From Planctomyces sp. (lineage in GTDB: Bacteria > Planctomycetota > Planctomycetia > Planctomycetales > Planctomycetaceae), in NCBI GenBank assembly GCA_027483405.1, contig JAIXUU010000025.1, positions 11,072 through 75,071 of the forward strand: a stretch of 64,000 bases of DNA. Reading direction: 5' to 3'. Both the position numbers and the translations under genes were made by a program. The notes below the pieces were generated by a model. That model made no database searches. It worked only from the letters and a program-made list of their open reading frames with translations, and had not been told where the DNA came from. This document shows, piece after piece, positions 13,414 through 29,194 of this stretch. The stretch's first letter is position 1, and every line of letters starts with the position of its first letter.

Positions 13414-15264
13414 TTAGTTTGCGGGAACCAGAACTTCTTCGGGGAGTTCAGCCGCAGTTGCAGCCTTGTAGTCAGCCTCTGCGGCGAAGTAACCTAGTAG
13501 GGCGAGAACTTCCTGAACACGAGCATCAAAGGTGGCCTGCTCGCGCAGGTTCAATCTCAAGAGATCGCTCGCGCCCTCATTTAATCGAATGGTTTCAAAT
13601 CGTTGCATCTCTTCGTTGAGACGGACAGAAGCACTGGCCTGACCAATGGCACGATAGGCATTTTCCAGGGCAATGACGGCAGTGCGAACTTCGACGGAGA
13701 TTTTATCAGCGGTGAATTGGCGTTTGGCCATATTCTGAGCCAGCTTCCCTTCCACCATCATGATTTTTCCGTTGGCGTTTCGACGTTGCAAAGGAACGGT
13801 AAACTGCAAACCGGCTTCTCCCTGAAAGGGACCTTTATCGTTAATCGAACTGGTTGGCCCGCCGACATCTTTTGTGGCAAGAACATGTGCGCCGAGTGTC
13901 GGCAGGAGTTCGTTCTGGGCTCTGGACAACTCGATCGATAACTGCTGACGGTCGAAATCGAGTGCCAGCAATTCCGGTCGGCGGGAGGTGGCAAAGGCAA
14001 TATCGGCTTCGAGCACTTCGGGAGTCACCAGCATGGGTGTTGGAAATCTTGACGGAAGCATGCTGTTGGGGGGAATAAAAGGATTACCCGCAGCGTCTCT
14101 CAAATAGAGTGAGAGTTTGACGGCCGAGCTTTGAAGCTTTTGTTCCGCTTCAATCAGCTTGACTTGCCGGGCAACTATCAATCGCTGGTTATCAATGATA
14201 TCTGATTCGGGACGGTCGCCTTCCTGAACTGTCGCGCGGATCTGCTGATCTCGATCCAGTGCCAGTGCCTGTAACTCACGAGCCACTCGCAGCCCCTGCC
14301 CTGCGGCCACCCATTCCCAATAGGCGACCGTACTATCACGAATAAACTGCAGGAGCTGGGTTTTGATCTCCGGTTCCACTTTTGATTGACCAACCTGAGT
14401 AATCCAGAGTTCAGCGCGGCGTTTGTCAATCGCACGGTTCTGCAACAGTGGAATCGCCAGACCCATCATGAACTCACCGCCATCGTTGGTTTGGCGATTT
14501 CCGTACCATGGTTCAAAGTTACCACGACCCGCGCGATAACCGGCAATCACTTCTCCACCATTCTGGAGCACGGGCTGGGCAATATCGAAACCATTGCGAT
14601 ACGTCTGGTAGTAGCCCAAGGGCTGGTTATTCAGATCAGCATTCAGCTTGAGGTCAAAAGCTCCCTGGGCAGCGAGATTGGCTCCATTGGCAATATTACG
14701 TCCATAAAGTGCATTCCTCAAAAGAGGAAACGACATGTAGACCGAGTCGATGACACTGTTGAGTACCAGGGGTGGACTGACTCGCTCATCACCCACGATG
14801 GGAATCTCATCGACACTGCCCGGGCTGGGAGGAATTTCCTGGCGGATCCTTCCGGGGAGCAAGGATCCCTCCATAAACTCATCGCCTCCACCGGCGGGAG
14901 GAGTGCTGCTTTGACCTGGTGGGGACGATGCTCCCTGTAAAGCAGCGGTCTGCTCAGCAGCAGTTGCACCTGCAGGTTCTGTATCCAGCACTTCAGAATT
15001 GGCAAGTTGAATTGTGGATGAGGTCTCGTCCGCAGGCACCTGATCTTCTGGAGTTTCAGGTGGGAAGGCTGTTTTGTTAGTTGTGTATCGAGAACTGGTC
15101 TCTTTGCCGGTGGTGTTTTCTTCGGAGATCTTGTGATTGGCGACGGTCGATTTCTCGACCGACGGTGCTGGTGAGATGGAGCGAACCACACTTGTACGAG
15201 CGGTTGAGCATCCGGCAATCACCAGGCAACCAACAAGCATCCATGCTTGTCCGGATCGCGTCAT
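13414..15264 (-). CDS. TolC-family outer-membrane efflux lipoprotein
   Basis: Lipobox LVIAGC, disordered linker, OEP repeats (RRPEL, PLQRRNANG); overlaps the upstream HlyD gene by 4 nt. Confidence 0.85.
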   Translation of the reverse strand: MTRSGQAWMLVGCLVIAGCSTARTSVVRSISPAPSVEKSTVANHKISEENTTGKETSSRYTTNKTAFPPETPEDQVPADETSSTIQLANSEVLDTEPAGATAAEQTAALQGASSPPGQSSTPPAGGGDEFMEGSLLPGRIRQEIPPSPGSVDEIPIVGDERVSPPLVLNSVIDSVYMSFPLLRNALYGRNIANGANLAAQGAFDLKLNADLNNQPLGYYQTYRNGFDIAQPVLQNGGEVIAGYRAGRGNFEPWYGNRQTNDGGEFMMGLAIPLLQNRAIDKRRAELWITQVGQSKVEPEIKTQLLQFIRDSTVAYWEWVAAGQGLRVARELQALALDRDQQIRATVQEGDRPESDIIDNQRLIVARQVKLIEAEQKLQSSAVKLSLYLRDAAGNPFIPPNSMLPSRFPTPMLVTPEVLEADIAFATSRRPELLALDFDRQQLSIELSRAQNELLPTLGAHVLATKDVGGPTSSINDKGPFQGEAGLQFTVPLQRRNANGKIMMVEGKLAQNMAKRQFTADKISVEVRTAVIALENAYRAIGQASASVRLNEEMQRFETIRLNEGASDLLRLNLREQATFDARVQEVLALLGYFAAEADYKAATAAELPEEVLVPAN

Positions 15265-16706
15265 TTTTTCCCTCGAAGAAGTTTGTCGTCCGTTGAACTC
15301 TTGTAATCATCCAGTTGAATAGCGGGTGGGAATCCGTTGAGTTGTCTCCAGAGTTCCTGCCCGATTGTGACCCGATCCAGCAACACCCAGGCTCTGGCCC
15401 GAATCCCTTGCCTCAAGACATTGGCTGTGGGCCACGGCCTTGTTTCATCCGGATCAGGCAATACCAGCACGCGAAATTTACCAATTCCGTCATCCATCGA
15501 ATCGACGACAGCGACAACACCACCGAAGGTTCCGACCGCGACTGAAGGCCAGCCGGAAAATTGAACCGCAGGCCAGCCTTCAAATTGCAACCTGACTTTG
15601 CGATGCTGGCCATCTTTAGATAGCGAGGCGACCAGCGGTGCATCATTTCCATCGACCTTGATTTCGACAGCGCGATCCGCAGTTAATGGAACGAGTTCCA
15701 AAAGCGGCGTGCCTGCCGAAATAATTTTTCCTCCCTGAAAGTTTGTCAGTCGCAGGACATAGCCATCAATCGGGGCTACCACGGACTGTACTTGCAACTT
15801 TTGTTTAGCTTGGATATCGGCGATCTCCTTCTCGGTACTGGCGATATCTCCCAACGACTTCTGATAAACGGCCCGTGCTGAGTCAATCTTGGTGATCGCC
15901 TCACGAATCTTGTAAAGTCGCTCGGCCTCTTTAGCCGACAGCTCGCTCTTGGCTGCTTCGACATAAGCATTGGCCTGTGCCAGTTTGGCCTGTTCCTCTT
16001 GAGCTTTTCGCTCAGCAATTTCGACTTCGTATCGAGATTCCACTTTCTGTTCGAAGAGCTGAATGCGTCGAATGCGATCCTTCTCGGCCTGCTCGTAGGC
16101 GGCAGTCGCTGCTTTCAGGTTCTGCTGCTCAGCAAGCAACTTCTGCCCAGCCATTTTGATGAATTCATCCTGGGCGAGTTCTGTCTGATTACGAATGGCT
16201 TCAAACGCTTGAACTTGTTGTTCGTAGGCAATGGCAATTGTCTTTTCTGTCTCGAGTTTACGCTGAGTGGCCATCAACTGTTCTTCGAGGCGAAAAATCA
16301 AAGCCGAGTCGATGACCTCAATATCCATGAGGACTTCGCCTTTTTTGACAATCGCTCCTTCCACCAACTCGGCACGAATATTCGTGATGCGACCTCCAAT
16401 GGGAGCATCGATTTCCTGCAGGCGATGATTGGGATCATAAGTGATCACTCGCCCGGAACCGACAACGGATTGCTGCCAGGGGGCGAACATCATGACAATC
16501 AGACTGATGGGCAACGCCCACAATAGTGCTGTCGAGATCCAGCGAATCGTACTGATCGGCTGGGCCAGTTGGAGTGCCGGAAAGTTCTGGGCTTGCCAGG
16601 TTTCGCCGACGTTCCAAAGCCCCAGAGTGTTGTCATGGTGACCATGATGCCCACCAGCGGGCACAATTGTGCCTTGCGGTGTGGTACTGATTTGTGTGGA
16701 AGCCAT
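15261..16706 (-). CDS. HlyD-family membrane fusion (periplasmic adaptor) protein
   Basis: N-terminal TM, IDAPIGGRI...VKKGEVL lipoyl half, long coiled coil, VVAPIDGYV...G.PLLELVP. Confidence 0.9.
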   Translation of the reverse strand: MASTQISTTPQGTIVPAGGHHGHHDNTLGLWNVGETWQAQNFPALQLAQPISTIRWISTALLWALPISLIVMMFAPWQQSVVGSGRVITYDPNHRLQEIDAPIGGRITNIRAELVEGAIVKKGEVLMDIEVIDSALIFRLEEQLMATQRKLETEKTIAIAYEQQVQAFEAIRNQTELAQDEFIKMAGQKLLAEQQNLKAATAAYEQAEKDRIRRIQLFEQKVESRYEVEIAERKAQEEQAKLAQANAYVEAAKSELSAKEAERLYKIREAITKIDSARAVYQKSLGDIASTEKEIADIQAKQKLQVQSVVAPIDGYVLRLTNFQGGKIISAGTPLLELVPLTADRAVEIKVDGNDAPLVASLSKDGQHRKVRLQFEGWPAVQFSGWPSVAVGTFGGVVAVVDSMDDGIGKFRVLVLPDPDETRPWPTANVLRQGIRARAWVLLDRVTIGQELWRQLNGFPPAIQLDDYKSSTDDKLLRGKK

Positions 16707-16818
16707 GTTTCACTCCTTCCGAGCGAATCGTGGATGATGTTCGTGATGCAGGCCTCGTCCGTTATTCAGTCAGGACGTCTTGAACTTCTTATCTGGAAAT
16801 GAAGCTCAATCTGGCATT

Positions 16819-19116
16819 CTAGGTCGCAGGTAAGGATGGTTGACGAGGTGCTTTCAAAGGTCGGGATTCGGCATTATCCATCTCGATGGTCTGGTCGCAC
16901 AGCGCGGCAACATCAGGCCGGGAGGTGGCGATGATCGTGGTCCATGTTTTGTCTGGCGCGAAGAGGACGCCCAGCAAACGCTGCCGCAAGTGGTCGGGCA
17001 AGCCATCCAGCCATCCGTCAATCAGAAGCAGACGCGGTGAGCCTGCCATGGCTCGTGCGAGCATCAGTTGCATCTGCTCCGTTGAAGAAAGCGGCTCACC
17101 TTTGGCCGATAGTTCTGTATGGATACCACCGTGTAATGTTTCAATTCGAGCCATGAGTGCGACATCTTCGAGTCGTCGCTTGACGGTTTGATCACTGACG
17201 TCGGGTCGATGCAAATGGACGTTGGTGGCAATGGAAGCAGACAGAATCTCAGGCATCTGGACGAAAGCCACCTGTGATCTGACAAGATCTTTACGAAGAT
17301 CATTCAGTGGTAAACCATCGAGCTCGATGATTCCCTCGAATTCGTAGGCCTCACCTGCCAGGGCCGAGAGAATTTTTGACCGATGCTCCGGCTGATTATC
17401 CAGAATGGCCAGCGATGAACCCGGAGTCACGGTACAAGTTAAATGGGGAGTCATCCAATGACCGACACCGGGCGAATGGCCCCACGAAACATTTCGCATA
17501 TCGAGAGCGATCGGTTTGCGTGATTCAGGCAACAAGACCCCTCTTTGCTGGGTCACAGGCAGGTCGAACAGATGGCCCAGTTTATTCACCGCCGCCATGA
17601 GATCGAACCATTCTTCAAGATGTTTACCGAGTTTCAGAAACGAACCCACAATGGTGGCGACAATCAGTTCGGCAGCGACGAGTTGGCCGAGTGTCAGTTG
17701 TTCTCGAAGTACAAGATAACCACCCAGGCCCAGCAGGGCGGTTGCTGCCACAGCCTGGAGTATCGCTAGAGCAATGTATTGCCTGAGAACAATCGTAAAG
17801 TGACTTTGCCTCGCATTGAGATAACGTGTGCATAGCGCATCGCTTCTTTGCCAAGCCAGAGCAGCACCATCAGGGGTGCGGAAGATCGCAGGGACGCGAA
17901 CCAGTTCTTCGAACCAGGCTAGTGCCATGTATTTATTGTTCGATTCTTCGATGGAAGTTCGCACCCCTCCGCGCCCCATTGTCAAAATGATGATCGACAA
18001 CAGCACAATCAGGACAAGGTCATAACCGAGAAGAAACGGATGATAGAACGCCATCAATGTCATACCGACAATTGTTGCCAGAATGATCGCTAATCCATCC
18101 ACCAGCAGGCTGCTGATGACTTTCTGAAGTGTCACCACTTCCAGAAACCGATTGACGAGTTCCTGTCCATCATGATGCAGCCATTCGGCTTCTTTGACTC
18201 GCGGAAGCCGCCATGCCAGGTCGGCAGTAATGCGAGTGAACAGGCGGCGTTGGATCACTTCTGAGATATAGATCTTCAGAATCTGGAAGGCGCCGAGCAG
18301 ACTTAATAGCCCCAGGAGAATAATGCTCAGAACAATAATTGGCTGGAAGACACCGCCAAAAGTCACCGCACGGACAAGTTGTTGAGCCGCTAATGGAGCC
18401 GAGACTGATAACAGGCCAGCCGCACATGCCATCAGGAAAATCGTCCAGATTTCATTTTTCTCTGGCGCGATCATGCGCAGCAGACGTTTCCAGGGAGGCT
18501 GGTGGTGCTCGTGGCCGGCACCCAGCCCATCGATATTGGGCTCAAAAACGACACAGCGCGCAGCAACTTGTGGAAAACTCTGGACGAAATTGAGCCAGGG
18601 CAAGTCTTTGCCGTAAAGCTCATTGGCAAACTCCATGGCCAGCGTTTTTTTTCGTCCCGAGACGACGAACAGCCTCTCAGTCAGTTCTGGTGCGGCTTTC
18701 GAAGATGGAGCTGAGGCGTTTGGAATTGGCACAGTTGGAATTGGTTCAGTGCGACAAAGGGCGATACCACCATGTTTCGCAAGTGCATGAACTTCACTGA
18801 TCGTCAGATCCATGAGCCGGATGGCCAAACCATGAGACCTGGCAACTTCGATGGCCCACTTCCACCACTTACTGTCGAAGTCACCCTGCCAGCACCGGGC
18901 GGCTGCTTCGAGTTCTCGTTGAACGATCAGAGGTTCCCACGGATTTTCAGTGAGTCTACCGAATTCGACCAGTGCGCCGGCTAAAGCCGCACCCTGACTC
19001 GTACCGGATGAGAAGCACTCGGTTTCATCTCCGTAGTCGTTTCGATCAGTCTCCGCGTGGCGGAGTTCCCCCGGCTCAGCTCTCGATGTCGAAGATGATA
19101 ATCTGCTCACAACCAA
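16819..19116 (-). CDS. Type I secretion-type ABC half-transporter (C39-like N-terminus, TMD, degenerate NBD)
   Basis: Six-TM ABC membrane domain with LTLGQLVAAE; NBD fold recognisable, but Walker A, signature, Walker B and H-switch are all substituted. Confidence 0.85.
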   Translation of the reverse strand: MVVSRLSSSTSRAEPGELRHAETDRNDYGDETECFSSGTSQGAALAGALVEFGRLTENPWEPLIVQRELEAAARCWQGDFDSKWWKWAIEVARSHGLAIRLMDLTISEVHALAKHGGIALCRTEPIPTVPIPNASAPSSKAAPELTERLFVVSGRKKTLAMEFANELYGKDLPWLNFVQSFPQVAARCVVFEPNIDGLGAGHEHHQPPWKRLLRMIAPEKNEIWTIFLMACAAGLLSVSAPLAAQQLVRAVTFGGVFQPIIVLSIILLGLLSLLGAFQILKIYISEVIQRRLFTRITADLAWRLPRVKEAEWLHHDGQELVNRFLEVVTLQKVISSLLVDGLAIILATIVGMTLMAFYHPFLLGYDLVLIVLLSIIILTMGRGGVRTSIEESNNKYMALAWFEELVRVPAIFRTPDGAALAWQRSDALCTRYLNARQSHFTIVLRQYIALAILQAVAATALLGLGGYLVLREQLTLGQLVAAELIVATIVGSFLKLGKHLEEWFDLMAAVNKLGHLFDLPVTQQRGVLLPESRKPIALDMRNVSWGHSPGVGHWMTPHLTCTVTPGSSLAILDNQPEHRSKILSALAGEAYEFEGIIELDGLPLNDLRKDLVRSQVAFVQMPEILSASIATNVHLHRPDVSDQTVKRRLEDVALMARIETLHGGIHTELSAKGEPLSSTEQMQLMLARAMAGSPRLLLIDGWLDGLPDHLRQRLLGVLFAPDKTWTTIIATSRPDVAALCDQTIEMDNAESRPLKAPRQPSLPAT

Positions 19117-19147: not shown

Positions 19148-19702
19148 TTATGTCGGCAGGGTCGTGGAAGAGTCTGACAGATCCGTCGGTTTGTCGACCA
19201 CAACCGTTTCGGAAAAATCAGTTGGATTGAAACTGCGATGTTCACCGAATGAAGTCTGTTCCGGCAAGCGATCGCCTGACATTCCATTAGATCGTGATGG
19301 CTCCGGCTGAGGGACGACCTTCTGCTGCAGAACGTGTGCCTCCCGACTCATCGACGAACTTGCATTTGTGGATGCATTGCTATCTGTCCCGGAGTTCTCT
19401 ATCTGATCTGGTGTGGGTTGATCGAGGAACACATTTCCCATTCTCAGCCACTCGGCGAGCCGGGGATTTGCCAGCCGGTAATAAACATGCCTGCCTGAAC
19501 GGCGTTCTTTGAGCAATTTGCGGGTTCTCAAGAGTGCCAGGTGTTGTGAAACTCCGGAGTGGCTGATTCCCAGCAACTCTTGCAGAGAATTCACGTTACG
19601 TTCACTGTCACGCAATTCTTCCACAATCTGGACGCGGCAGGGATGCGACAGGACTCCAAGAAGCTCGGCCATTTCCCTGGTAGCAACAGTCGAGGACGGC
19701 AT
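19148..19702 (-). CDS. ArsR/SmtB-family regulator with low-complexity C-terminal tail
   Basis: LSHPCRVQIV, SHSGVSQHLALLR, RRSGRHVYYRL; start trimmed to MPSSTV. Confidence 0.85.
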   Translation of the reverse strand: MPSSTVATREMAELLGVLSHPCRVQIVEELRDSERNVNSLQELLGISHSGVSQHLALLRTRKLLKERRSGRHVYYRLANPRLAEWLRMGNVFLDQPTPDQIENSGTDSNASTNASSSMSREAHVLQQKVVPQPEPSRSNGMSGDRLPEQTSFGEHRSFNPTDFSETVVVDKPTDLSDSSTTLPT

Positions 19703-19970
19703 CGATCGACACCTTTCGATGTTTGAATCTGTGTACGGGTTACTGTTACGACTGTAGATACGTTGATCGGCGTTAGAAAGATGACAAAATCGTAAGAAAA
19801 AGTTTGGCAGTGGCAAGTTGAACCAGGTTGTCCTTCTTGTTGCAGCAGGAATTGCCGACTGCCCCTTCAGGTGGCTGTCAGGCAGGATGGCCAATCGCTA
19901 CGATTTGAAATTATTGACTGAATGTCTGCAGATCGAATGTTCAAGAGAGTTCGAGAGGGAGTGGGCTGAG

Positions 19971-20342
19971 ATGTCCGTCAGAGGAATTCGTGGTGCAACC
20001 TGTGTGGATTGCGATAATCCTGAACTGCTTCTGGCTGCGACTCGAGAACTCCTGGCAGAACTGCTTCAGCAGAATGAAATCGTCGATTTCGACGAAATCG
20101 TTTCGGCGATCTTCACGACAACCCCCGATCTCACCTCGACATTTCCGGCCGAGGCGGCTCGCGCTCTCGGGATGCGGCAAGTGCCACTCCTGTGCGCATC
20201 AGAGATCGCAGTTCCCCAGGCGCTGCCACGTTGTATTCGTGTGTTACTGCATGTGAACTCAAGTAAGGCACCCAGTGAAATTGTGCATGTCTACCTGGGA
20301 GAAGCCAAGAAGTTACGCCCCGATATTCAGAGTGCGCAGTAA
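19971..20342 (+). CDS. aroH: Chorismate mutase, AroH class
   Basis: [15 protein letters not shown]...[29 protein letters not shown]. Confidence 0.95.
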
Positions 20343-20372
20343 CCCTTTCTCACACTGTGGATGAGCGAACGA

Positions 20373-21257
20373 TCAGCGCGGAACTTTGGAAATCAGTTCC
20401 AGAGGATTTGCACTCTGGTCAATCATTTCCAGTGTCTCGTGAGCGAGCGTCGCATCAGCCTCTTCCCGAGGATCGAGAATTTGAGCTCGTCTATGCCGAT
20501 GTGCCGGCGATTGTTCACAGTACGGGCAAGATTCTGTGTAGATGACCCTGCGGCAATGAGCACATTCATGGACGCCAAAGACCGGAATTGCAGCACTCAG
20601 ACGCTGATAGATAAAGTAACCAAAAGTAAAGATCACGAAGGCAATCAGCAGTAATGTGGCCAGCCAGTGACGCTCCCACAGAAAGCTCCACAACGTTGTG
20701 ACCAATGCAAAGCAGCAGAGACTGTAGAGTGCGATGTCGAGCAGACGCCGTCGATTGAATCGAATTCTGGCCAGTTCGCGATTGACGCGATGGCCGAATT
20801 TCTGCCGGAGTGCATCGACCTTTTCGTCTTCCAACTGAGTCGCCCGCTGGGTGTGGCCTGTCGCCACCAATAACCGCTGAACGCTATCGAGCACTCGGTA
20901 GGCATCGTCTTCAGTGAGAAACGACTGATGAGCTAACTGATTACGAAACTCACGCAGTTCGCTGATCAGGCTCCGTTCAAAAATTCCCAACTGATGGCGA
21001 AAGCAGTGATTCCACTGTTCCCAGACCACATTCAGCAAAATGTGTGGATCTGACAGCGGATCCGAAAATCTGGCAGAGGCCATGTTTCGATCACCGCGAA
21101 TCTGCGCAAGAATGACTTCTTCGACTCGATGTCCATACGACTTGCTCAATTCCTGTCGAATGAATGGAGTCCACTCTTCGACGAGGATTTCGAGGGCCAG
21201 ATGGATGCGATCGGCAGGTGTGGGCACGATGAAGACTTTACTGCGACAACGTCGCAC
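20373..21257 (-). CDS. Swt1-like HEPN domain protein with two TM helices and a C-terminal Cys4 zinc ribbon
   Basis: D...LLNV.WEQWN..F and ELREFRNQLAH (RxxxxH); two hydrophobic helices; CAHC-x8-CPYC. Confidence 0.75.
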   Translation of the reverse strand: MRRCRSKVFIVPTPADRIHLALEILVEEWTPFIRQELSKSYGHRVEEVILAQIRGDRNMASARFSDPLSDPHILLNVVWEQWNHCFRHQLGIFERSLISELREFRNQLAHQSFLTEDDAYRVLDSVQRLLVATGHTQRATQLEDEKVDALRQKFGHRVNRELARIRFNRRRLLDIALYSLCCFALVTTLWSFLWERHWLATLLLIAFVIFTFGYFIYQRLSAAIPVFGVHECAHCRRVIYTESCPYCEQSPAHRHRRAQILDPREEADATLAHETLEMIDQSANPLELISKVPR

Positions 21258-21498
21258 TCACGGAGGGATCGATTTCGGACAAATCGTGGGGCTGTTCAAG
21301 CTCGCGATCAATCAGGATCCGATGGAACAGCATTCGTCTCGCTATGATTGTGGTCATCAACAAGATGTCCATGGGCCACTCTTGGAACAATCTCGGTGTA
21401 AAGCCTGAGAATTCCGGGAAGTATCGCCGAATGTAAGGCTTATGACTGATGATCTAAAAATTCATGCTGTATGAATTCGTCTGGAAGTAGGGAGATCG

Positions 21499-22821
21499 TC
21501 AGGCGAGCTTCAGCTCGGGAAAATGAGTCGTCAGTTGAGACCAATGCTCTGCGCATTGTCGGCGGGCATCGGCAATCGAAGAACCCCATCCGAAGAGGGT
21601 GCAAACCGGGTATCCACTGGAAATGAGACTTCCAGGAATCGGGATGTCGGCAATCACAGGAAGAAGTTTCGCTTGTGGAATTGCTGGTTGATTGGACCTG
21701 AGAGCATGCGAATTCAACCAGAGAGTACGCAAATCCGGCGCATGAAAGGCTTCCCCTGCATAGACGACCTGCTTGCAACCGAAGTTGGGGCGCTGCAAAT
21801 GATCCCCACCTGCTGTTTTTTTCCCGGAAGTTGCGGACGCATCTCTAAAACAAGGTGGCATCAATTCGCTCTGCCAGGCCCTGAGATGCAGATCCATCAG
21901 CGATGCGGGATGGCCGACTGTTCCTTCCAGAATTTCACAACTCGCCGTGTAGCGCGGATTGATTTCGATCGGTCGCCACGACTCATCGCAGCGAATGCCA
22001 TCAATTCCCAGAATTCCTGACAGGCCAGTCGCTTTGACAATCGCGTTCGCCAGTGAACAGGCCAGTTCATCGATGGCTGGGGGAACAGTGATCGGGCCCA
22101 CGGAGCCGCGATAACCATATTTTCCCCAGGGAGTGCCGATCAGACCTTCAGTCCAGCCGATTCTCTCCACACAGCTGGAACTCGCCATGAAGATGCAGCT
22201 TTGCGGAACCCCATGGACGTTTTCCTGCAGGTATTCAAGCTCATCAAGCGAATGATGGAAGCTCTCTTCGGTAATATTGGCTTGAGAAACATCGCGAACA
22301 TTGAACCCTCCTCCGGAGTGCAGCGGTTTACGAATCCACTCTTGAATCTGGTAGGGATCGACTTTTGTAGCTTGTCGTGATGCGGACGTTGCGAAATGTC
22401 CGGGAAGGATGACTGCCAGCGGATTTCCACCGATACTGGCGAACGTTTCCTGCAGAAAGCGGGGATCACGAATCCGTTTGAGAAGCTGAGGTGTAACTCC
22501 AAGGAGAGGAATCGAGCACTTGTCAGCTTGCTCGAAGAATTTGACAGCATCTGCGGGCCAGTTCTCAAATGGGCCCGTGTAGGTCCAACCTTGCACGTGT
22601 TCGACATGGGTGGGATCCAGAGACCAATTCTCTGTTTCTGCGGGAAGTGACTGCCAGATCGATGACTCTTGAAGATCCAGATCTCCGTACTGGTCATAGG
22701 CGATAACTTGCCACCCGCCACGCTGAGCCGAGGCCGCTGCAGCACGCACACTTCCCCCTGCGATCAGAATTTTGGGGGTCGTCTGCATGGAGATTACATT
22801 TCTTGAATTGTGGTTCGGCAT
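21499..22821 (-). CDS. ATP-grasp protein of the COG2232/Orf9 type (H4MPT/methanofuran-pathway associated)
   Basis: ILIAGGSVRAAAASA.R.G..V.A.DQYGDLD, RKP..SGGG, YLQENVHG, GIDGI, IEINPRYTAS, D.P..G..I..G.PVCT. Confidence 0.75.
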   Translation of the reverse strand: MPNHNSRNVISMQTTPKILIAGGSVRAAAASAQRGGWQVIAYDQYGDLDLQESSIWQSLPAETENWSLDPTHVEHVQGWTYTGPFENWPADAVKFFEQADKCSIPLLGVTPQLLKRIRDPRFLQETFASIGGNPLAVILPGHFATSASRQATKVDPYQIQEWIRKPLHSGGGFNVRDVSQANITEESFHHSLDELEYLQENVHGVPQSCIFMASSSCVERIGWTEGLIGTPWGKYGYRGSVGPITVPPAIDELACSLANAIVKATGLSGILGIDGIRCDESWRPIEINPRYTASCEILEGTVGHPASLMDLHLRAWQSELMPPCFRDASATSGKKTAGGDHLQRPNFGCKQVVYAGEAFHAPDLRTLWLNSHALRSNQPAIPQAKLLPVIADIPIPGSLISSGYPVCTLFGWGSSIADARRQCAEHWSQLTTHFPELKLA

Positions 22822-23059
22822 GGGAGAATAGAATTGATCATAAAAATAAGTGTTCTTGTGGATACTTTCTTGTGGTCGGTTTTCGGCATTTGTGAGTTAC
22901 GCAAATGAAGTTACGGGACTCCTTTCGCCGCAGAAATCGAATTGTCGTAAAATTCGTCGTGTTTCTGGGATAGGCATTCACTTGTTCTGCGTGAACTTAG
23001 CTGCTATTTTTCGCAAATGCGGAAACGTTGTCGCTGAATATTTGCGGTGGAGTGCAAAC

Positions 23060-23179
23060 ATGGTCTACCGACCACGAACAAAATTGGTGAAGTTGAGGAA
23101 GTCGATTCGCTGCCCCAAGTGCGGCAAGCTGGTTGGTTTTGCCATTCGTTGCAAGACTTGCCACAAGAAGCTTCGGTAA
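23060..23179 (+). CDS. 39-aa basic Cys4 zinc-ribbon small protein (MVYRPRTKLVKLRKSIRCPKCGKLVGFAIRCKTCHKKLR)
   Basis: GGAG at 23049-23052, 7 nt before the ATG; CxxC-x9-CxxC; 14 K/R and no acidic residue. Confidence 0.65.
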   Translation: MVYRPRTKLVKLRKSIRCPKCGKLVGFAIRCKTCHKKLR

Positions 23180-23237: not shown

Positions 23238-23426
23238 ATGCCTCGTACAGAACGTGACCGTGAGTTGGCCAAGCGTCGCCAGCGTAAGGCCAAGATCAAG
23301 AAGCTCGAAAAGAAGTACGCAGCTGCTACCTCAGCCGCTGACAAGGAGCTGATTGTGGCCAAGGTTCGCCGCATGAGTCCCATGCTGAACTTTGTCGCTC
23401 GCGTTGAAGGGACCGAAGCCAAGTAG
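23238..23426 (+). CDS. 62-aa basic helical small protein (resembles the planctomycete DUF6800 family)
   Basis: ER.RELA.RR.RK.K.KKL pattern; protein-like composition; same strand as, and 58 nt after, the 39-aa ORF. Confidence 0.75.
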   Translation: MPRTERDRELAKRRQRKAKIKKLEKKYAAATSAADKELIVAKVRRMSPMLNFVARVEGTEAK

Positions 23427-26828: not shown

Positions 26829-27652
26829 TAAGCATCGCCAGTGCCCGGCTCCAGACGTGGGAAGAGCCTGACGGGGCTTGAGAATGTTGAAACTGTTGAT
26901 CGCTACGGCGATTTGATTCGTCGTGCCGACCTGTTACTATAAGGCTTACGGTGGTTTTCTGAAATCCTCAGTAACCAATGTAAGTGTTTGATTTGTAAAT
27001 GCTTGCAACGTGTGTTCGCAAGCAGTCATCAACCAGATAAAGCGATTGCAGATGGATTGTTGAATGCAGTGGGGGCAGTAAACGAATCTCGGAAAATTTT
27101 TGACGATTGAAGGGGCCATATCTGGCGTGATTTGAGTGTGTTGTGGGGAATCGTATTTGAAACTCCAGTTACAGTTTCAGGTGATCAGCCTCCACTCATT
27201 GAGAAGAACACCGAATGGCAGTTTCTCGACGCACTTCTACCAGTTATTTCGAAGTCCGCTGGCAAATCATGGCTCAGATCTGACTTACGCCGAGAACAAC
27301 CTGCCGAAGAGATGGATCATTTTGGAAATTGACTGTCATCGTTGTGAATGCTTGAAGAAGGCACACAGTTTGATTTGGTAAGCAGTTCCAGATTTCTGTT
27401 CGGTTATGGAAGTCTCATTGTAAGAGTTGGTATTCCCGACTCAGGCAGATCGGATTGATGAACTCGTTGTAAAAACTGTGTTTGTGAAATGATCAGCTGG
27501 TTCCTATATCGTCGAAAATCATCAATGACTGTTGAAGCTCCAATGAGTGGTGATTGATTGTCTTTGGTTCCCTTCAGACAGATCTGATTCGTTTCTCCGC
27601 CTTTTTCATTCAAGAATTCATTTGTCAGCCGACAAAATTTAAGGGCTGCCAA

Positions 27653-29194
27653 GTGGAAATAGTCATTGCAGGCATTCTCGGGTTGCTACTCGGAGCAGCA
27701 GCGGGATACTTCGCTGAACGAGTTGTTCGTGGTACTGCGTTCAAAACCCGTGCAGAAATCGTCGCTCAGGCCGAGCGTGACGCCGAGAACTTGCGAAAAG
27801 CTGCCGAGCTCTCTGCTAAAGAAGAACTTCTTAAGCGTCGAGAAGAACTTGACCGTGAGCTTTCAGCACAGCGAGATGAACTTCGCCAACTGGAGCGGGC
27901 TTTGGATAAAAAAGAAGCCACGATTCGCGAGCGCCAGGACGAGTTCGCCAAGCGGGAAAGAATGCTGGAGACCACTCAAACCAAGTTGGCAGAACGCGCC
28001 AAAGTGGTGGAAGCTCGTGATCGAGAAGTCGAAAAAATTCTCAAGCAGGAGCAGGAACAACTCTACAAGATCAGCGGCCTGGATCGTGAATCTGCCGTCC
28101 GAATGCTCCTGGATCAGCTTGAACGCGAACTCAAGAATGAAACCGGTGCTCTCGTAATGAAACACGAGGCCGATGTGAAAGCCCAGAGCGAAAAGCAGGC
28201 TCGGGAGATCATTGGTATGGCCATTCAGAGGTACGCCTCAGCCCATACTTCCGAATCAACAGTTTCCACAATTGACATCCCGAATGATGAAATGAAGGGG
28301 CGAATCATTGGTCGCGAAGGCCGCAATATTCGCGCCTTTGAAAAGGCCACCGGAGTCGATGTGATTGTTGATGACACACCGGGTGTGGTCGTTGTTTCGG
28401 CTTTTGACAGCGTTCGCCGGGAAACAGCTAAGCTCGCACTGATTAAGCTGATTCAAGATGGTCGCATGCACCCCACACGCATCGACGAAATCGTGCTCGA
28501 AACTCAGAAGGAAATGGAAGAATATATTCTTCGTCAGGGAGCCGAGGCTGCACAGGAAGCCACGATTCCTAACCTCCACGAGAAACTGCTCGCACTCATG
28601 GGGCGACTTCACTTCCGTACCAGCTACAGCCAGAACGTACTGCGGCATTCGATTGAAGTTTCTGCACTCACAGGCATGATGGCAGAGCAACTGGGTCTGG
28701 ACGGCAATCTCGCCCGCCGCTGCGGCTTCCTGCATGATATTGGAAAGGCCGCCGACCATGAAATGGAAGGTGGTCACCCGGCTGTGGGTGCCGAATTGCT
28801 CAAGCGGTATGGCGAACGTCCCGAGGTGATCCATGCCGCACGCGGCCATCACGACGATATTCGTCCTGATTACATCTACACAGTTCTGGTGGCGGCTGCC
28901 GATGCCTGTTCGGCTTCTCGACCTGGTGCACGCCGCGAGTCGCTTGAGCGATACGTCAAACGTCTGGAAGAACTGGAATCGATTGCCTGTGGATTTCCAG
29001 GTGTCGAGCAGGCTTATGCAGTTCAGGCAGGCCGGGAGATTCGCGTCATTGTGAATCCTCAGGATGTGAATGATCGCGAAGCGGCCCGTTTGTGCCGCGA
29101 TCTGGCAACAGCGATTGAACAATCTCTCACCTACCCTGGTGAAGTTAAAGTCACCGTCCTGAGAGAAACACGAGTCATTGAATACGCACGCTAG
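27653..29194 (+). CDS. rny: Ribonuclease Y
   Basis: N-terminal TM (GTG start), coiled coil, KH domain [15 protein letters not shown] domain [14 protein letters not shown]-like [10 protein letters not shown]. Confidence 0.97.

Follow-up and report, generated by a model that had tools for sequence, protein, structure and literature searches.

In bacterial immunity and in toxin systems, HEPN nucleases have a central place. A membrane-bound form, with an N-terminal HEPN domain, a pair of transmembrane (TM) helices and a C-terminal Zn-ribbon, was noted by Anantharaman, Makarova, Burroughs, Koonin and Aravind (Anantharaman et al. 2013, Biol Direct 8:15; PMC3710099), with a protein of Planctomyces (now Rubinisphaera) brasiliensis as the example. 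That paper gives this HEPN-2TM-Zn-ribbon group one sentence and contains no distribution, selection or synteny data for it; it also draws the analogy with Ire1-type membrane HEPN enzymes. We found no later experimental work on the family in the literature, nor any tested membrane-tethered bacterial HEPN forms outside CRISPR type VI.

The gene studied here lies in a 64,000-nucleotide stretch of DNA from a Planctopirus genome (referred to as the window). It is an open reading frame at 20373..21257 (-), encoding 294 aa from a GTG start, and its parts follow the same order as in the 2013 group (Swt1/Abi2-type HEPN, TM pair, zinc ribbon), with no difference in kind. The R. brasiliensis protein (WP_013628213.1 / ADY59486.1) sits in the 90% cluster of a homologue, P0053, that aligns with the window protein over its full length (HEPN, TM helices, CPYC ribbon) at 36% identity. 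From these alignments the window protein appears to be the orthologue of the 2013 example, the link running through the R. brasiliensis protein by species. NCBI names the family "Swt1 family HEPN domain-containing protein". The architecture and its functional reading have been known since 2013, and this is no new kind of system. A preliminary description of the gene, made from the DNA letters, implied a higher novelty than is warranted, as its functional alternatives are essentially the published reading. What we add are distribution, descent, selection and gene-neighbourhood data for a family noted in 2013.

Among other described systems, the HEPN-DUF499 proteins (Ava_2192 type) resemble the family very closely over the HEPN domain and the first part of the helix after it (profile positions 3-155, E 1e-40 to 1e-57), and the RN(R/K)WAH motif is common to both. 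They are, however, soluble proteins of about 1100 aa linked to a BrxC/PglY-like AAA+ ATPase, lack the TM hairpin and the CPYC ribbon, and have been reported from R-M/BREX-like operons. The preliminary description had also pointed to the type VI CRISPR accessories, and this comparison holds as an analogy only. Csx28 and Csx27 of type VI-B share with the window protein a HEPN-like domain (divergent in Csx28) and membrane anchoring, but the window gene has no cas13b or cas gene nearby, gives no PADLOC match to Csx, and belongs to a different HEPN family. Csx28 is moreover reported to be a membrane pore rather than a nuclease. With the eukaryotic Ire1/RNase L KEN domain and C6orf70 the common element is a concept, that of a membrane-tethered HEPN RNase, active as a dimer, that cuts RNA at the membrane face; a kinase domain and a lumenal sensor are present in Ire1, but the window protein has a loop of 0-4 residues and no sensor domain, and it shows no specific sequence relationship to these eukaryotic proteins. 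In HEPN-MNT type II/VII toxin-antitoxin pairs such as HepT-MntA the toxin is an Rx4-6H HEPN RNase working as a dimer, but their HEPN family is different, HepT was a weak Foldseek match, and a nucleotidyltransferase partner was found neither here nor in 80 related loci.

Architecture and conservation of the protein

The features of the gene and its upstream gap are as follows, all on the minus strand.

20373..21257 (-): whole ORF, 294 aa as listed; likely true CDS 20373-21227, 284 aa
20862..21197 (-): Swt1-family HEPN domain (PF18731), residues 21-132; AF2 pLDDT 90-98
20928..20945 (-): predicted Rx4H catalytic motif RNQLAH, R105-H110, inside the conserved block ELREFRNxxAHQ
20742..20852 (-): basic helical stalk, residues 136-172, continuous with TM helix 1 in the AF2 model; K146 and L150 nearly invariant
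20676..20741 (-): TM helix 1, residues 173-194, from hydropathy; conserved family-wide
20595..20663 (-): TM helix 2, residues 199-221, from hydropathy; F212 and R219 nearly invariant
20508..20594 (-): predicted C4 zinc ribbon, residues 222-250, GVHECxxCxxxIYxxxCPYC
20376..20507 (-): variable C-terminal tail, residues 251-294; pLDDT 41-60; missing or unalignable in many homologues
21344..21371 (-): promoter-like site, one consensus match in the 241-nt upstream gap; weak, not above shuffled sequence

Translation probably begins at the second GTG, at 21227 (284 aa), 30 nt inside the listed GTG at 21257, because the NCBI records of three Planctopirus species give a protein of 284 aa, the N-termini of homologues in other genera match position V11, and in the genus comparison the ten codons upstream of 21227 have non-synonymous changes only while the next codons vary synonymously. 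A 5,423,075-bp chromosome from the same genus carries a copy whose protein is 100% identical to that of the window, and the P. hydrillae copy is 94% identical to the window protein. A scan of the window's genome recovered this same PF18731 match as the single copy. The promoter-like site listed above was the only one found by the promoter/terminator scan around the gene, which gave no terminator, and an Rfam search of 19800-21800 gave no match.

The N-terminal domain had been proposed to be a Swt1-like HEPN domain. This was borne out by a full-length, high-scoring match to PF18731 (HEPN_Swt1; E 4.7e-26, 91.8 bits where the curated cut-off is 27.5; profile positions 2-113 of 115). It was the only Pfam domain found in the 294-aa protein, which has no DUF499 AAA+ ATPase, and NCBIfam returned noise only (HgcAB-like over the TM helices, Spt4 over the ribbon). 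A word-indexed search yielded 63 homologues, all with PF18731 and nearly all of 240-290 aa. The RNQLAH motif does lie at 20928-20945, as R105-H110, and its expected conservation among orthologues was observed: R105, N106, A109, H110 and Q111, together with E100 and E103, were invariant in alignments of 25 and 62 sequences, and R105, N106 and H110 also in a set of 56. The motif reads RNQLAH in Planctopirus (RNHLAH in the genome G004) and RN(R/K/Q)WAH in nearly all other members and in the wider bacterial Swt1 family, so that the change of Trp to Leu inside it is confined to the Planctopirus genus.

These residues bear on whether the domain is an enzyme at all. Eukaryotic Swt1 HEPN domains are thought to be inactive, and the HEPN domain here might similarly be the non-catalytic RNA- or nucleotide-binding module proposed for eukaryotic Swt1, with the protein acting as a membrane scaffold or sensor; the Leu that Planctopirus has for the near-universal Trp of RNRWAH would fit such a role. 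We consider it quite unlikely, since the motif R, N and H with the flanking E, A and Q are all invariant, and this combination is the signature attributed to catalytically active bacterial versions (PMC3710099).

The remaining parts named in the preliminary description (a basic linker, two TM helices and CAHC-x8-CPYC) are all present and conserved in the 62 homologues, which places the motif, the TM pair and the Cys pattern far beyond chance. Seven K/R residues fall within the 18 residues preceding TM helix 1, and positive charge at this place is a feature of the whole family. The loop between the two TM helices has 4 residues (ERHW), and a short loop between hydrophobic helices is kept across the family. 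The segment GVHECAHCRRVIYTESCPYC begins six residues after TM helix 2 and forms the putative C4 zinc ribbon, in which CAHC-x8-CPYC corresponds to C232/C235/C244/C247 (positions 20517-20564). In the 62 sequences E231, C244 and P245 of the ribbon were invariant, and G228, C232, C235, I239, Y240, Y246 and C247 were conserved at 90% or more. The last 44 residues showed weak conservation. The same division was seen in the substitution rates within the genus, where dN/dS was 0.03 for the HEPN domain, 0-0.04 for the stalk and TM helices, 0 for the ribbon (dN = 0) and 0.38-0.89 for the tail. The low values point to strong purifying selection on the HEPN domain, the stalk with the TM helices, and the ribbon. 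A query of the stalk, TM helices and ribbon (residues 160-252) for other N-terminal partners, a search of limited sensitivity, returned family members only.

Structure and membrane topology

The AF2 model built with the 62-sequence alignment had a mean pLDDT of 86, with 94-98 across the HEPN domain, stalk and TM helices. It contains a single unbroken helix over residues 136-193 (stalk and TM helix 1), a turn, TM helix 2 at 198-221, and finally a small beta ribbon. About 37 helical residues separate the HEPN domain from the membrane surface in this monomer model, and the ribbon lies at the surface. A model of the domain alone (residues 12-136) was all-helical, with a pLDDT of 90.

Foldseek searches of the PDB gave nothing significant, either for the full-length model (helical-bundle noise such as ferritins and designed proteins) or for the HEPN domain alone (best E 0.79); in the latter search the HEPN toxin HepT (6m6w_D) ranked 8, with a probability of 0.15 and a TM-score of 0.31. 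Sequence and profile searches of the PDB gave no HEPN entry. Membership of the HEPN superfamily consequently rests on the Pfam match and the motif, not on fold comparison. For the ribbon, the sequence and profile searches of the PDB showed sub-threshold similarity to the zinc ribbons of archaeal Nop10, Spt4 and RpoE'' (E 0.1-2.4), which we would read as a fold-class resemblance only.

Both the HEPN domain and the zinc ribbon are predicted to face the cytoplasm, on the basis of the positive-inside rule and the 4-residue loop. As there is no outside domain, any trigger would have to act within the membrane or from the cytoplasm, and the periplasmic loop of 0-4 residues makes the cell-surface sensing suggested in 2013 unlikely for the HEPN-2TM-Zn-ribbon group. 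Sequence supports the overall molecular picture well, with a HEPN domain that is predicted to be cytoplasmic and is borne on a helical stalk, followed by a TM hairpin and a putative zinc ribbon next to the membrane.

Distribution and descent

The full architecture was present in 104 of 150 high-quality genomes of Planctomycetaceae (GTDB family), covering 57 of 74 genera, and almost always as one full-length copy. Across these and about 230 genomes from the rest of the phylum it was seen solely in Planctomycetaceae. Fifteen of the genomes from outside the family had matches, all of them to the HEPN domain and the stalk start only (profile positions 3-155), and the matches outside Planctomycetaceae were mostly in ORFs of about 1100 aa. 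This HEPN-DUF499 type is the only HEPN_Swt1 form seen in other families of the phylum. It occurs phylum-wide, at times beside the TM form in one genome, and in Planctomycetaceae genomes four such second Swt1-type HEPN domains were noted at the N-terminus of ORFs of about 1100 aa (G020:C179:14441-14887, G157:C1:6956025-6956462, G108:C228 and G149:C38). A search of 1.84 billion representatives gave 2646 matches; about 45 of the best 150 had the full architecture, and the others among those 150 had the HEPN module only, fused to DUF499, a UvrD helicase or an Mrr_N+STAND NTPase. Named matches in the species-genome collection all came from Planctomycetaceae (Planctopirus, Schlesneria, Planctomicrobium and Thalassoglobus), and Rubinisphaera was among the named protein matches. 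By these comparisons the Planctopirus gene is an orthologue in a Planctomycetaceae-specific family known from computation.

The HEPN protein tree and the RNase Y tree, each covering 15 genomes, had their main clades in common (Planctopirus with G016; G011 with G020; G009 with G018 and G022), and the pairwise distances of the two proteins were correlated (Mantel r 0.60, p 2e-4, with the Planctopirus genomes left out). This agreement indicates mainly vertical inheritance with repeated loss. The gene is missing from about 23% of Planctomycetaceae genera, and two decayed copies represent loss in progress: a frameshifted copy whose HEPN and TM+ribbon parts occupy different frames (locus L133, G079:C6:206200-210000), and a locus where only a 106-aa TM+CPYC-ribbon ORF is left, with no HEPN (L130, G128:C63:8300-11600). 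Apparent split genes in the genome G087 were rejected, being the result of a contig break. Given the absences together with the occasional breakage, the gene is dispensable.

RNase Y is itself the classical membrane-anchored endoribonuclease, and in the window its gene lies at 27554-29194 (+), 6 kb from that of the HEPN protein. The two are unrelated in fold, RNase Y having KH+HD (RNase_Y_N, KH and HD) with one TM helix at the N-terminus. Unlike the dispensable HEPN protein, RNase Y was found in every one of the 17 related genomes checked; within the genus it is 99-100% identical.

The main rival reading of the protein is a defence function. In that case the protein would be a single-gene abortive-infection effector, i.e. 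a HEPN RNase held inactive at the membrane which, when freed by a phage-induced perturbation of the membrane or cytoplasm, shuts down translation. HEPN RNases are mostly toxins or defence effectors, and the closest HEPN relatives of the family, which count against its being a resident RNase, are in defence-type fusions (with BrxC/PglY-like DUF499 ATPases, the UvrD helicase, and Mrr_N+STAND). The patchy distribution and the occasional pseudogenes go the same way, but the largely vertical descent, the single copy and the very low dN/dS do not.

Gene neighbourhood

The gene lies between an aroH and an ATP-grasp gene, as the preliminary description had it. Downstream and convergent is an AroH-type chorismate mutase gene (PF07736), and upstream, across a 241-nt gap, is the ATP-grasp gene (PF02655). 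Farther off in the window are an ArsR-type regulator, an ABC/HlyD/OEP export set, carA, an MFS transporter, tilS, RNase Y and an HtrA protease. The window neighbours of the HEPN gene are housekeeping genes. Their order is kept only within the Planctopirus genus. An operon with the ATP-grasp gene was rejected as a general feature, the adjacency being confined to the genus.

Several other features of the window were observed. As listed, the ArsR-type ORF at 19148-19894 (-) and the aroH ORF at 19818-20342 (+) share 77 nt; the Pfam match to chorismate mutase does not start until residue 54, and the aroH start is hence probably further downstream. Two small basic ORFs had no Pfam match. The one at 22850-23179 (+) has a C-terminal CPKC-x12-CKTC, possibly a zinc ribbon, and is 88% conserved in the genome G003, and the one at 23238-23426 (+) encodes a 62-aa Lys/Arg-rich protein. 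The region 13414-19116 (-) contains a type I secretion-like set composed of an OEP (TolC-like) protein, a HlyD-family protein and a 765-aa ABC protein, which is much extended at its N-terminus and scores only weakly for ABC_membrane and ABC_tran.

The gene had also been described as standing alone, with no antitoxin or defence neighbours, and our survey agrees, since no neighbour was conserved across genera. PADLOC found no defence system in the neighbourhood, giving domain-level matches only on the flanking genes, and no model match on the HEPN protein itself, where a CARF_2M match over the TM helices was at noise level (E 0.055). There were no matches to cas genes, cas13b or Csx among the window neighbours. 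In the 80 related loci there was no universal neighbour, no conserved small antitoxin-like partner and no nucleotidyltransferase. All this goes against a defence effector, as does the absence of a defence island, the neighbourhoods varying between genera without being defence-rich; the solitary position of the gene, apparently with its own upstream gap, would on the other hand suit one. Taking this together with the relatives and the descent, we hold a defence effector to be possible, though not probable.

Upstream neighbours in the 80 loci were clade-specific: DUF1501 in 26, often with a PSCyt/DUF1549/DUF1553 gene before it (15), and a membrane-bound Exo_endo_phos (EEP) protein in 15. In the Schlesneria-like clade the HEPN gene is immediately preceded by PSCyt1/DUF1549/DUF1553 and DUF1501 genes (L030:1534-5830 and 25 other loci). 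Pairs of PSCyt1/DUF1549/DUF1553 and DUF1501 genes are very abundant in planctomycetes, and the link with the HEPN gene may therefore be inherited gene order.

The EEP gene could be a functional partner, for instance in envelope- or lipid-linked signalling, in which case Planctopirus would keep half of a two-gene module. The EEP gene precedes the HEPN gene on the same strand, about 100-400 nt apart, in 18 genomes of 9 genera, and stands even beside the degraded remnant in G128. Nevertheless, none of the four Planctopirus genomes sampled has it, the HEPN gene occurs without EEP in about 45 genomes and EEP without the HEPN gene in about 18, and in other genomes the two are 8-120 kb apart. Co-occurrence is weak overall. 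As EEP is absent from Planctopirus and often unlinked, the pairing is weak evidence of coupling, and given the vertical descent the adjacency may be simply inherited gene order. We regard a two-gene module as very unlikely. The EEP proteins are of about 330-370 aa; the gene lies directly upstream of the HEPN gene at L044:4887-5891 and also in G053, G149, G113, G170, G124, G071, G041, G022, G087, G108, G077, G145, G068, G047, G160, G156, G122 and G128. One copy that was read, in G128, has hydrophobic, TM-like N-terminal segments.

Discussion

The preliminary description had put forward, by inference, either an RNase triggered by stress or phage or a housekeeping RNase that is localised, and its alternatives keep that status here. 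The vertical descent, single copy, low dN/dS and non-defence surroundings point to a resident, regulated RNase, and the defence-type HEPN relatives, the dispensability and the occasional decay keep an abortive-infection role alive. About half of our confidence goes to a resident, regulated, membrane-proximal RNase that would serve a stress response or RNA quality control, and would not be a mobile defence cassette.

A resident RNase of this kind may work as follows. The protein would be an inner-membrane protein with the HEPN domain and the C4 ribbon in the cytoplasm, held by a tight two-helix hairpin with essentially no periplasmic loop. Going by what is known of HEPN enzymes, two chains may pair through the long stalk and the TM hairpins, and the paired RNxxAH motifs would then form the composite, metal-independent endoRNase site typical of these enzymes. 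RNA would thus be cut close to the membrane. The zinc ribbon may bind RNA, ribosomes or a partner, or have a regulatory part, and would not be a lid for the active site.

A more specific version is that of a lineage-specific housekeeping or stress RNase, the bacterial counterpart of the Ire1-type HEPN nucleases, which would dimerise within the plane of the strongly invaginated cytoplasmic membrane of planctomycetes and cleave membrane-proximal mRNAs, tRNAs or ribosome-bound RNA, the CPYC ribbon docking on ribosomes or RNA. We propose it only tentatively. If true, it would mean that a HEPN nuclease had been domesticated from defence into core RNA metabolism in a single bacterial family.

What keeps the family of interest is that, for HEPN proteins, it behaves unusually well and lends itself to experiment. 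For Planctopirus limnophila, genetic tools are available. With one gene in one copy, strongly conserved and confined to the Planctomycetaceae with their unusual membrane organisation, the HEPN-2TM-Zn-ribbon family is a clean case for study, and its substrate and trigger would tell whether a 'defence' nuclease was domesticated for membrane-localised RNA control.
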